4,900 bases of DNA from a virus (lineage: Duplodnaviria; Heunggongvirae; Uroviricota; Caudoviricetes): the IMG/VR virus record IMGVR_UViG_2671180846_000008. One strand, written 5' to 3'. Every line of letters begins with the position of its first letter. The first letter of the stretch is position 1. Made by a program: the position numbers and the translations under genes. Positions 2,827 to 4,613 of this stretch are shown here, piece after piece. Below the pieces are notes generated by a model. The model had not been told where the DNA came from and made no database searches. It worked only from the letters and a program-made list of their open reading frames with translations.

Positions 2827-3428
2827 GCGAAATTAACTCTCAGGCACTGCGTGAAGCGGCAGAGCAGGCAATGCATGACGACTGGGGATTTGATGCGGAC
2901 CTTTTCCATGAGCTGGTAACACCATCGATTGTGCTGGCACTGCTGGATGAACGGGAAAGAAACCAGCAATACATCAAACGCCGCGACCAGGAGAACGAGG
3001 AAATTGCGCTAACGGTAGGGAAGCTGCGTGTTGAGCTTGAGGAAGCAAAATCAAAACTCAACGAGCAGCGTGAGTATTACGAAGGTGTTATCTCGGATGG
3101 GAGTAAACGTATTGCTGAACTGGAGAAAAGCGAAGAGCAACTCATTAACGAGCGTGACCATGCTGAGTCTGCTTTAGCTGATATGTACTTCGCAACAACC
3201 GGGGATAGGCCTGAGTGGAGTAACTGTTTCAGTTTTTCAGATGCTGTCGATGCCGTAGTTGACAGAATTGCTGATTTAGAAGCCAAACAGCCATCGCCAG
3301 TAGTACCGGAAGAAAAACCAATGCCTAACCCTCTTAGCATGTACACAGTTGATGCTGTTGCAGCTATTGCAGAGGTGAGAGGCTGGAACGCCTGCCGTGC
3401 AGCCATGCTTAAGGGAGATAAATCATGA
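2823..3428 (+). CDS. ea22: Ea22-like protein, 201 aa, with a coiled-coil central region; GTG start
   Basis: N-terminus MSEINSQALREAAEQAMHDDWGFDADLFHELVTPSIVLALLDERERNQQYIKRRDQENEEIALTVGKLRVELEEAKSKLNEQREYYEGVISDGSKRIAELE recognised as lambda Ea22-like from memory. Heptad-like charged/hydrophobic pattern. The start codon at 2823 is GTG. C-terminal portion not recognised. Confidence 0.8.
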   Translation: MSEINSQALREAAEQAMHDDWGFDADLFHELVTPSIVLALLDERERNQQYIKRRDQENEEIALTVGKLRVELEEAKSKLNEQREYYEGVISDGSKRIAELEKSEEQLINERDHAESALADMYFATTGDRPEWSNCFSFSDAVDAVVDRIADLEAKQPSPVVPEEKPMPNPLSMYTVDAVAAIAEVRGWNACRAAMLKGDKS

Positions 3429-3775
3429 TTAATCGAACCAAACTGGAGCACATCCTCGAGTATGCCAGGCAGCAGAGGCGCTTTGGCCAGCTTTGTAAAA
3501 TTCTGCCAGGAGATATGGTTGAAATCGTGGAGATTGCCATGCGTAAGACTGGCAACTCTCCGGTAAGTCCGGGTGGTTGGATAAGCTGTAGTGAGCGAAT
3601 GCCCGCTCAAGATGATTGGATTTTAATTTATTCAAAGCACGGTGAGTATATGGCAGGACAGGTACAAGAGGAATACGTGGAGTTGAGCGACGGCACTTTA
3701 TCGTGGTTAGGGAACGCCTTGTACTGGATGCTGCTACCAGAACCGCCGCAGGGAGTGAATGATGAATTGGCCTGA
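3425..3775 (+). CDS. Hypothetical phage protein with a DUF551-like C-terminal domain, 116 aa
   Basis: C-terminal pattern W-I-x-x-x-E-R-M-P ... W-x-x-L-P-E-P-P (GGWISCSERMPAQDDW...LYWMLLPEPP) resembles the DUF551 signature common in enterobacterial prophages. ATG overlaps the ea22 stop (ATGA at 3425-3428). Domain assignment is from memory. Confidence 0.6.
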   Translation: MINRTKLEHILEYARQQRRFGQLCKILPGDMVEIVEIAMRKTGNSPVSPGGWISCSERMPAQDDWILIYSKHGEYMAGQVQEEYVELSDGTLSWLGNALYWMLLPEPPQGVNDELA

Positions 3776-3845
3776 AGCATTCACCGCTGTAGGAGTTGCA
3801 ATCGCGGTGGCATTTATTCTGTATTCGCTTTTCCGCTGGGGATAA
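3759..3845 (+). CDS. Candidate small single-pass membrane peptide, 28 aa (MMNWPEAFTAVGVAIAVAFILYSLFRWG)
   Basis: Shine-Dalgarno-like AGGGAG at 3750-3755 precedes ATG 3759. Contains an uninterrupted 19-residue hydrophobic stretch flanked by W/E and R/W. Overlaps the 3' end of the DUF551-like ORF in another frame and ends 4 nt before the next ORF. Confidence 0.3.
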   Translation: MMNWPEAFTAVGVAIAVAFILYSLFRWG

Positions 3846-3849
3846 AGGA

Positions 3850-4092
3850 ATGTTCGCTCTGATTCAACGTGGTCAGATATACACCGATAGCGCCGGCTAC
3901 CCGATAAAAATTCTTCGCTGCATAAACAACACTGTGTTGTACAGAAGAATGGATGGGCGAACACAGTCGGTAAAAATAAACGATTTTAATGAACTGTTTG
4001 AACGGATCGATCACCAGGAATACCGACAAATTCTGGCTGAAACAGAGCAGGAGAACCATCTGAAAAAATTACGCGCCATGCAAAGGAGATAA
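3850..4092 (+). CDS. Hypothetical protein, 80 aa (MFALIQRGQIYTDSAGYPIKILRCINNTVLYRRMDGRTQSVKINDFNELFERIDHQEYRQILAETEQENHLKKLRAMQRR)
   Basis: ATG 3850 preceded by AAAGGA. Same frame as track ORF 3796-4092, whose start is a TTG abutting AGGAG with no spacer, so ATG 3850 is preferred. Basic C-terminus. Not recognised as a lambda gene. Confidence 0.5.
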   Translation: MFALIQRGQIYTDSAGYPIKILRCINNTVLYRRMDGRTQSVKINDFNELFERIDHQEYRQILAETEQENHLKKLRAMQRR

Positions 4093-4142
4093 ACCGGTAA
4101 AGGTGTTCGCGATAAAGGTGAATATCGGCAATGAATAACAAT

Positions 4143-4198
4143 CCTCGCACTCGCGGGGATTTCTTTTATCTGAACTCGCTACGGCGGGTTTTGTTTTA
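4143..4198 (+). terminator. Two tandem terminator-like hairpins, each followed by a U-tract: CCTCGC-ACTC-GCGGGG + ATTTCTTTT (4143-4167) and CTCGC-TACG-GCGGG + TTTTGTTTT (4176-4198)
   Basis: Hand-folded inverted repeats with 5-6 bp GC-rich stems (one G-U wobble each) directly followed by T-rich runs. In the 118-nt intergenic region between the 80-aa ORF and the 114-aa ORF. Confidence 0.4.
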
Positions 4199-4210
4199 TG
4201 GAGACAAGAA

Positions 4211-4555
4211 ATGTCAGATTTGGCTATGAAGGTTTTGAAATGGCAATCGACTGGCGATGTTGGCATCAGTAGCGCAACTCTTGCCTCAATCGCATGTGGC
4301 CTGAAAAAGAATATCTATGGTCATCACTTCGGCGCTCCCCATGACGCAGCAGACTTCCGACGATGCGTTGCACTTGTTGAGAAGATTCCAGAAATCAGAG
4401 ATTCATTCGACAAGGTTGCAAAGCGCGTTCCGGCATTCAAAGGCATCCTCAACGAATGGGATTCCCTCGTCGCTCTGTTGAAGTCTGAAATGAAGATACA
4501 CGGAAACAAAGCACCAGAGACTTACAGAAGAATTAGCGAGCTACGCAAGGACTAA
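4211..4555 (+). CDS. Hypothetical protein, 114 aa, unknown function; candidate moron/accessory gene
   Basis: ORF MSDLAMKVLKWQSTGDVGISSATLASIACGLKKNIYGHHFGAPHDAADFRRCVALVEKIPEIRDSFDKVAKRVPAFKGILNEWDSLVALLKSEMKIHGNKAPETYRRISELRKD. GGAG at 4200-4203, 7 nt upstream of the ATG. Preceded by a 118-nt intergenic region and followed by hairpins. Not recognised as a lambda gene. Confidence 0.55.
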   Translation: MSDLAMKVLKWQSTGDVGISSATLASIACGLKKNIYGHHFGAPHDAADFRRCVALVEKIPEIRDSFDKVAKRVPAFKGILNEWDSLVALLKSEMKIHGNKAPETYRRISELRKD

Positions 4556-4560
4556 CCACA

Positions 4561-4579
4561 GCCTCACACTCAATGAGGC
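4561..4579 (+). terminator. Inverted repeat GCCTCA-(7-nt loop)-TGAGGC just after the 114-aa ORF stop; possible stem-loop or weak terminator
   Basis: Perfect 6-bp inverted repeat at 4561-4566 and 4574-4579, followed by CTGTTCATTTCT (moderately T-rich). Confidence 0.3.
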
Positions 4580-4613
4580 CTGTTCATTTCTCAAGATATC
4601 CAGACCTACCATT

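Follow-up and report, generated by a model that had tools for sequence, protein, structure and literature searches.

In lambdoid phages, the exo-xis region consists of a conserved block, orf60a-orf63-orf61-orf73-ea22, followed by a variable set of genes, all of them transcribed from pL (PMC8614690). Direct reprogramming of host transcription has been reported for an Orf73 homologue (PMC9239242). Here we describe a stretch of 4,900 nucleotides (nt) from a virus of the Caudoviricetes (IMG/VR record IMGVR_UViG_2671180846_000008), hereafter the window, and in particular its segment 3425-4610, which lies between ea22 and xis. The first-pass annotation placed four open reading frames (ORFs) of 116, 28, 80, and 114 amino acids (aa) in this segment and recognized none of them as a lambda gene; we find the same four ORFs at the same positions (table 1), and none belongs to lambda. 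The plus strand of the window is a lambdoid early-left (pL) operon, as seen from the ORF list, Pfam, and RefSeq, and the segment is the distal variable end of this operon's exo-xis region in a lambda-like Escherichia coli prophage. Like known exo-xis regions, it occupies the interval between ea22 and xis, belongs to the pL unit, and is made of small, tightly spaced, non-essential genes (PMC8614690), and unlike lambda it has neither ea8.5 nor orf55. It is a new combination of familiar, functionally dark cassettes and an ordinary representative of the exo-xis variable region. The idea that it might be an undescribed module must be given up, given that this variable end is documented (PMC8614690), that ORF114 was already named in phage 434 (M60848), and that the same genes stand next to xis in HK022, P27, phi24B (vb_24B_1c), phage 21, and many Shiga toxin (Stx) phages.

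The mosaic structure of the locus was defined by local BLASTN of the window against lambda 27500-33600. Identity to lambda is 97.4% over 1-2064 and 95.9% over 2115-3135, ends inside ea22 at 3135, and is back at 4630, from which it continues through xis to 4900 at 97.8%; the flanks are thus as lambda-like as had been annotated. Two intervals, 3136-4134 and 4214-4629, have no lambda match in this comparison, and between them lies a 79-nt lambda island (4135-4213) that is 94.9% identical to lambda 29361-29283, that is, to the ea8.5/orf55 spacer up to the orf55 start codon, which constitutes the terminator-bearing orf55 leader. The replacement consists of two blocks that begin inside ea22 at 3136 and are separated by these 79 nt of retained lambda. 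Block 1 replaces the C-terminal domain of ea22 together with ea8.5, and block 2, which is ORF114, replaces orf55. The segment had been described as a mosaic replacement at the place of ea8.5, and both the mosaic character and the loss of ea8.5 are borne out, but ea8.5 was not exchanged alone: the exchange starts within ea22, it comprises two blocks, and ORF114 stands in the place of orf55. Lambda ea8.5 (29374-29655) has no BLASTN match in the window, and no ORF has a match in Pfam, the Protein Data Bank (PDB), or PHROGs that is related to Ea8.5, a homeodomain/zinc-finger hybrid. The left breakpoint coincides with the border between the conserved N-terminal and coiled-coil part of ea22 and its variable C-terminal domain, several forms of which have been described (PMC10834534), and the Pfam Ead_Ea22 match is limited to residues 2-101 of the ea22-like protein. 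The modules from which the segment is assembled are shared with HK022, 434, P27, and Stx phages: HK022 shares 3296-3603 (96% identity by BLASTN) and 4085-4900, and phage 434 shares 4114-4900. The segment had also been judged AT-rich by eye, which is true to a slight degree (46.9% GC over 3425-4610 vs 50.6% over 1-2064), but GC content is clearly lower only in the DUF4222 gene, the most AT-rich gene of the segment (42.8%), and in the tL4 spacer that follows it (44.9%).

The right-hand block retains a record of how such exchanges may occur. The ORF114 locus lies between tL4 and t'I and 5' of xis, as it does in 434 and HK022, whereas orf55, which precedes ORF114 in both of those phages, has been deleted from the window: lambda's 55-aa Orf55 is absent after the tL4 leader, the leader at 4135-4213 alone is kept, and the ATG at 4211 opens ORF114 instead. 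In 434 and HK022 a hairpin, a T-run, and then TTTTATnGGAGA stand before both orf55 and ORF114, and each of these genes therefore looks like a cassette composed of hairpin, Shine-Dalgarno sequence, and ORF. The window reads ...GGCGGGTTTTGTTTTATGGAGACAAGAAATG, in which the orf55 leader is fused to the Shine-Dalgarno sequence and start codon of ORF114 (the copies of TTTTATnGGAGA at 345-371 and 541-567 of locus L002 were compared with window 4187-4213). Since the orf55 leader is joined to the ORF114 start at TTTTATnGGAGA, we conclude that orf55 was removed by recombination within that microhomology. To judge from these sequences, the loss of orf55 illustrates cassette exchange at the exo-xis locus.

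Although 450 phage records share pieces of 3425-4610, none of the deposited phage genomes reaches 80% coverage in one place, and the best of them, HK022, stops at 59%; thus, the segment represents a new combination of familiar cassettes. The combination of DUF551, micro-ORF, DUF4222, and ORF114 is found whole only in E. coli prophages. Of the interval 2200-4900, at least 80% is matched in 134 complete E. coli genomes, and the 20 genomes listed carry it at full length with 99.8% identity; they are mostly Shiga-toxin-producing and mostly from humans and cattle, with O26 and O103 as the only named serogroups. An IS600 or ISVsa5 insertion splits the match in two in four of these 20 (H31-H34), so the region tolerates disruption. 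Strain E2865 carries the prophage beside a DUF1175 gene, yfaA, and gyrA, and its RefSeq annotation contains the same genes in the same order except for the 28-aa ORF.

The one protein of the segment with a characterized relative is the 80-aa DUF4222 protein, and the expectation that the segment encodes an undescribed function is weakened accordingly by what is known of this family. RgdR (ECs1581) of enterohemorrhagic E. coli (EHEC) O157:H7 activates the LEE1 promoter and type III secretion and represses motility; it binds DNA non-specifically and has been proposed to be a co-factor of other regulators, and its RGD tripeptide (residues 20-22) was reported to be important for activation of the type III secretion system (PMC3378721). 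The 80-aa protein matches PF13973 with 57.9 bits vs a cut-off of 27, its residues 4-54 corresponding to profile positions 2-53. We recovered the RgdR sequence from the Sakai genome for comparison and found that its residues 17-68 match the same Pfam positions and that RGQ at residues 7-9 of the window protein aligns with the RGD of RgdR. Within the subfamily G8 and Q9 are invariant, and position 7 is mostly R, but Q, K, or H in several members. Both proteins are small and prophage-encoded, and in both a basic C-terminal tail follows the DUF4222 domain. Sequence comparison thus identifies the 80-aa protein as a distant paralogue of RgdR, the sole characterized DUF4222 member. Homologues of the 80-aa protein number 79, at 52-99% identity, and keep the N-terminal MFALIQRGQIYTD and the C-terminal LAETEQExHLKKLRAM with a middle part that varies; the phi24B counterpart, vb_24B_1c, has 49% identity. 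In the predicted fold of the protein, a small Tudor/SH3-like beta-barrel precedes a C-terminal helix that is long and basic. Lambda Orf55 was also considered as a truncated DUF4222 protein and was rejected, as it has no Pfam match.

The 116-aa protein had been called DUF551-like, and it is a true member of PF04448 (38.4 bits vs a cut-off of 22, E = 2.3e-9), with residues 51-109 covering profile positions 1-68. Its PHROG matches are 924/24004/60, of which PHROG 24004 is matched by the N-terminal 50 residues, and its RefSeq counterpart is WP_001345188. We found 1448 homologues, and elsewhere the domain also occurs in fusion with Ea22 or with DUF550 (a dATP/dGTP pyrophosphohydrolase domain). The same Pfam domain and an early-region location are shared by YfdS of E. 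coli CPS-53, by the C-terminal half of P22 EaA, which the HK022 homologue is annotated as matching, and by the C-terminal domain of Ea22 variant V2. In Ea22 V2 the domain is fused, whereas in the window it forms a separate ORF 3' of ea22 (PMC10834534). The phenotypes reported for YfdS are indirect, namely sensitivity to H2O2 and the ability to substitute for YfdT in hda-185 suppression (PMC4776307).

ORF114 is 98.2% identical to ORF114 of phage 434 (M60848), has a full-length homologue in HK022 gp32, and matches PHROG 1229 over positions 1-114 (E = 1e-51). The family is very large: an exhaustive HMMER search yielded 1856 clusters at 50% identity (E <= 1e-3), and tblastn detected ORF114 in 277 phage records, among them Vibrio, Salmonella, Klebsiella, Gordonia, Arthrobacter, and Mu-like Haemophilus phages. 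Among 36 diverse members, W11, G18, S20, P43, D45, D48, R51, C52, and W83 are invariant, and neither these members nor ORF114 itself belong to any Pfam family. The AlphaFold model is confident (pLDDT 93) and consists of an all-alpha domain of seven helices. No meaningful PDB match was obtained for three proteins by sequence or for the ORF114 profile, and a fold search of BFVD with ORF114 gave only uncharacterized relatives. In six distant phage or metagenome contexts, ORF114 sits in small early-gene arrays with no conserved partner gene; the phages with such arrays infect Proteobacteria and Actinobacteria. In addition, 20 longer proteins that contain it have no second domain recognizable by Pfam. 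One protein carries tandem ORF114-like domains (P0150, 333 aa), and database chimeras join the domain with DUF550, ERF, Ea22, or Kil segments (P0015, P0017, P0030, P0036); these are probably products of recombination or frameshift among early genes and not true fusions. No functional study came up in the literature under ORF114, the RefSeq accessions, or the phi24B locus tags. We consider it most likely that ORF114 works as a stand-alone early protein and binds a bacterial target, and this target would be widely conserved because the homologues span many hosts.

The smallest member of the segment, with the sequence M(M)NWPEAFTAVGVAIAVAFILYSLFRWG, is predicted to be a single-pass membrane peptide. 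A tblastn search places the micro-ORF in 92 phage records, with identities of 48-100%. In 933W, in the virulent phage Av-05, in Actinobacillus phage pPE4, and in ArgO145 it is intact at 27 codons and follows the pattern MTWPEAFxxVGxxxAVxxxxYS[IV]CRW[GR]; in each of them the micro-ORF ATG overlaps the upstream stop codon, and in each the upstream gene is a different one. The 84 nt of the micro-ORF are 75-81% identical between these four loci and the window, whereas the 60-nt flanks are just 17-30% identical, and the ratio of nonsynonymous to synonymous changes (pN/pS) is 0.14-0.47 in most pairs (full range 0.14-0.8). Of 5426 complete E. coli genomes, 1538 (28%) contain it, at up to seven copies per genome, and it is unannotated in the RefSeq genomes that were checked. 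These comparisons establish the micro-ORF, at the level of sequence, as a discrete, mobile, and usually unannotated gene and not a chance frame. The genes behind it in other phages are hok/sok, RelE/ParD, or DUF4222 (loci L006-L009, L018, and L019), and in an ST131 prophage it again lies directly 5' of a DUF4222 gene. As to whether it belongs to Hok/Gef or another group of type I toxins, the 28-aa ORF has no Pfam match except a sub-threshold glycine-zipper, a scan of the whole window revealed no Rfam antisense-RNA partner for it, and 933W and pPE4 carry a separate hok gene 3' of the micro-ORF. Its product is most likely a membrane-inserted modulator.

The arrangement of these genes bears on how they may be expressed. 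Start and stop codons overlap as GTGA at 2823 and as ATGA at 3425 (ea22/DUF551), the micro-ORF begins 17 nt before the end of the DUF551 gene, and the DUF4222 gene starts 4 nt after the micro-ORF stop. The overlap at 2823 joins the stop codon of the Orf73-like gene to the GTG start of the long ea22 ORF. A consensus scan for sigma-70 promoters found no promoter-like sites on either strand of 2800-4900, vs 2.5 expected by chance. A terminator scan found two hairpins with a T-run behind each, at 4140-4161 and 4172-4191, and a further hairpin at 4614-4629; in the annotated 434 record M60848, the pair is t-L4 and the last is t'-I. The spacer 4093-4215 folds far better than its own shuffles (RNA fold z = -3.4), and a scan at E <= 1 detected no Rfam family anywhere in the window. 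A 32-aa ORF at 4131-4229 was rejected as a gene, as it overlies the tandem tL4 hairpins.

We favor, with moderate confidence, the hypothesis that the accessory genes of the segment are N-antiterminated and delayed-early and that they modulate the host. The segment would have been built by the swapping of small gene cassettes at short conserved boundary sequences. By reference to lambda biology and to their position, the four genes would be silent in a lysogen and delayed-early because they have no promoter of their own, and their expression would await read-through of tL4 by N-modified RNA polymerase, after infection or induction. In analogy to the Orf73/TraR-like, Ea22, and Orf63 proteins of exo-xis, their products would be dispensable and would modulate both host physiology and the lysis-lysogeny outcome. 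The DUF4222 protein would probably reprogram host transcription as RgdR does; its Tudor-like barrel may dock on the beta lobe of RNA polymerase in the way that the domains of CarD and Mfd and the C-terminal domain of UvrD do, and its basic C-terminal helix may contact DNA. It differs from the CarD N-terminal domain, the Mfd RID, and the UvrD/PcrA C-terminal domain in showing no detectable sequence similarity to them (4-8% identity), and the fold class is a very common one; NusG/Spt5 KOW domains and Mfd rank lower in the comparison.

Several observations weigh against this hypothesis. The 80-aa protein does not contain the RGD tripeptide and has RGQ instead; its identity to RgdR is just 37% over 27 residues and 28% over 46 aligned columns (hhalign, probability 42%); and RgdR, at 99 aa, has an N-terminal extension that the 80-aa protein lacks. 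For ORF114 the searches made gave no analogue of known function, whether by structure or by sequence, so that any role given to it is a guess, and its distant homologues adjoin DNA methyltransferases and a Lar-like protein, a setting that anti-restriction or anti-defence would also fit. The promoter scan, confined to the sigma-70 consensus, is insensitive; we infer the timing of expression of the four genes from position alone, and the functions of all four proteins are putative. A more ambitious form of the argument would hold jointly that DUF4222 proteins, including RgdR, are CarD-like mini-factors with the barrel on the beta lobe and the helix on promoter DNA, that ORF114 represents a large unnamed family with a fold absent from the PDB, and that the 27-aa WPEAF...CRWG micro-protein is a new, mobile micro-gene of phages, carried by over a quarter of complete E. 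coli genomes. Taken together these propositions are tentative, and we consider it doubtful that all of them hold.

The first-pass annotation had expected host-interaction, anti-defense, or superinfection-exclusion cargo at this position. In its fullest form, such an explanation would have ORF114 inhibit a conserved component of host defense and the micro-protein block injection. The locus is a hotspot at which accessory genes recombine, and ORF114 relatives are found in the early regions of very diverse phages, some of them near the methyltransferases and the Lar-like restriction-alleviation gene mentioned above, as is typical of counter-defense genes; the micro-protein is likewise a single-pass membrane peptide of wide occurrence in E. 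coli, with hok/sok or RelE/ParD modules behind it in other phages. However, PADLOC-DB returned no families for any of six ORFs at E <= 0.1, and no similarity to named anti-defense proteins was found in Pfam, NCBIfam, PHROGs, or the PDB (NCBIfam gave only noise). Defense or exclusion requires expression in the lysogen, which the lack of a promoter-like site and the packing of the genes into the pL transcription unit make unlikely, and the sole characterized relative of any protein in the segment is a transcription regulator. We therefore regard defense-related cargo as unlikely, and in this part the earlier expectation is not upheld.

Another possibility is that DUF4222 and ORF114 modulate prophage excision or integration, as recombination-directionality or excision-timing factors. 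One or the other is the last gene before xis in 434, HK022, phi24B, Lambda_2G7a, the ST131 prophage, and others, and DUF4222 homologues are last or second-to-last before xis in P27, phi24B, phage 21, HK639, SfI, Lambda_2G7a, and the ST131 prophage. However, ORF114 homologues are frequent in phages that have no xis/int at that position, as in Mu-like SuMu, virulent-type Vibrio and Klebsiella phages, and actinophages; RgdR is encoded in a P4-like cryptic prophage, where its gene adjoins a primase gene and not the xis of a lambdoid phage; and in the window the t'I terminator stands between ORF114 and xis. A role in excision or integration is thus improbable. Least credible of all, and already largely refuted, is the view that these genes are decaying filler kept by linkage to xis-int, with the 28-aa ORF a chance frame, for although under laboratory conditions the region can be dispensed with (PMC8614690), databases contain many chimeric and truncated versions, and orf55 has been deleted here, the proteins show full-length conservation with conservative substitutions over wide divergence, ORF114 forms a great number of clusters, the AlphaFold2 folds are confident, and the micro-ORF has pN/pS below 0.5 in most pairs amid unrelated flanks. 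All four ORFs have coding support, DUF551, DUF4222, and ORF114 in the form of many diverged full-length homologues and the micro-ORF in being intact in unrelated contexts. What we prefer is still the delayed-early, host-modulating reading; no protein of the segment has an experimentally defined function, as the first-pass annotation held, and the segment is thus not a functionally characterized module.

The features of the window are collected in table 1. A run of 50 N at 2065-2114 interrupts the orf63 (DUF1382) homologue and is bordered by a direct repeat of ~27 nt (AGAAACAGACGAAGAATTTCATACGTT) at 2038-2064 and 2115-2141. The lambda alignment is continuous across the run, its two matches overlapping by 27 nt, and the run looks like a scaffold or assembly gap between overlapping contig ends, not biology. 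Just 5' of the 71-aa ORF, in the lambda-like orf61 region, a hydrophobic 27-aa ORF (MTTTECIFLAAGFIFCVLMLADMGLVQ) at 2211-2294 may encode a second small membrane peptide. Three long ORFs of 177, 81, and 83 aa lie on the minus strand opposite plus-strand genes (3077-3610, 3814-4059, and 4541-4792, respectively); they are unannotated in RefSeq and in related phages and were treated as spurious.

Table 1. Positions of genes and other features in the 4,900-nt window.
Feature	Position	Strand	Remarks
gam	30-326	+	
bet	332-1117	+	
exo	1114-1791	+	
orf60a homologue (DUF1317)	1785-1973	+	
orf63 homologue (DUF1382)	from 1946	+	
71-aa ORF	2291-2506	+	
TraR/DksA zinc-finger protein, Orf73-like, 73 aa	2605-2826	+	PF01258, E = 1e-8
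ea22-like gene	2823/2871-3428	+	long ORF has GTG start at 2823; RefSeq start is later, ~2871
C-terminal domain of the ea22-like gene, not from lambda (mosaic begins here, left breakpoint)	3136..3428	+	
116-aa DUF551 protein	3425-3775	+	PF04448
27/28-aa single-pass membrane micro-protein (predicted)	3759-3845	+	
80-aa DUF4222 protein	3850-4092	+	PF13973
tL4 tandem terminators	4140..4200	+	retained from lambda and 434
Junction and Shine-Dalgarno leader (TTTTATGGAGACAAGAAATG), site of orf55 loss	4187..4213	+	
ORF114 (phage 434 name; PHROG 1229), 114 aa	4211-4555	+	
t'I intrinsic terminator, GCCGCATCAATGCGGC then TTTTCTT, directly 5' of xis	4614..4637	+	
xis, right flank	4661-4879	+	97.8% identical to lambda; excisionase in RefSeq; int start follows

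These results do not overturn the current understanding of lambdoid early regions, and their value is that of incremental annotation. They flag two under-described entities, the very large ORF114 family, which has no solved fold, and a conserved micro-protein that goes unannotated, and they link the DUF4222 gene of the segment to RgdR and offer a possible, testable mechanism in the form of docking on RNA polymerase. The variable genes of exo-xis are still viral dark matter, and the region to which they belong influences the lysis-lysogeny decision and hence the release of Shiga toxin in pathogenic E. coli. E. coli has no CarD of its own, and if the CarD-like model is true, lambdoid prophages would gain a direct handle on host transcription, including that of the LEE and of motility.

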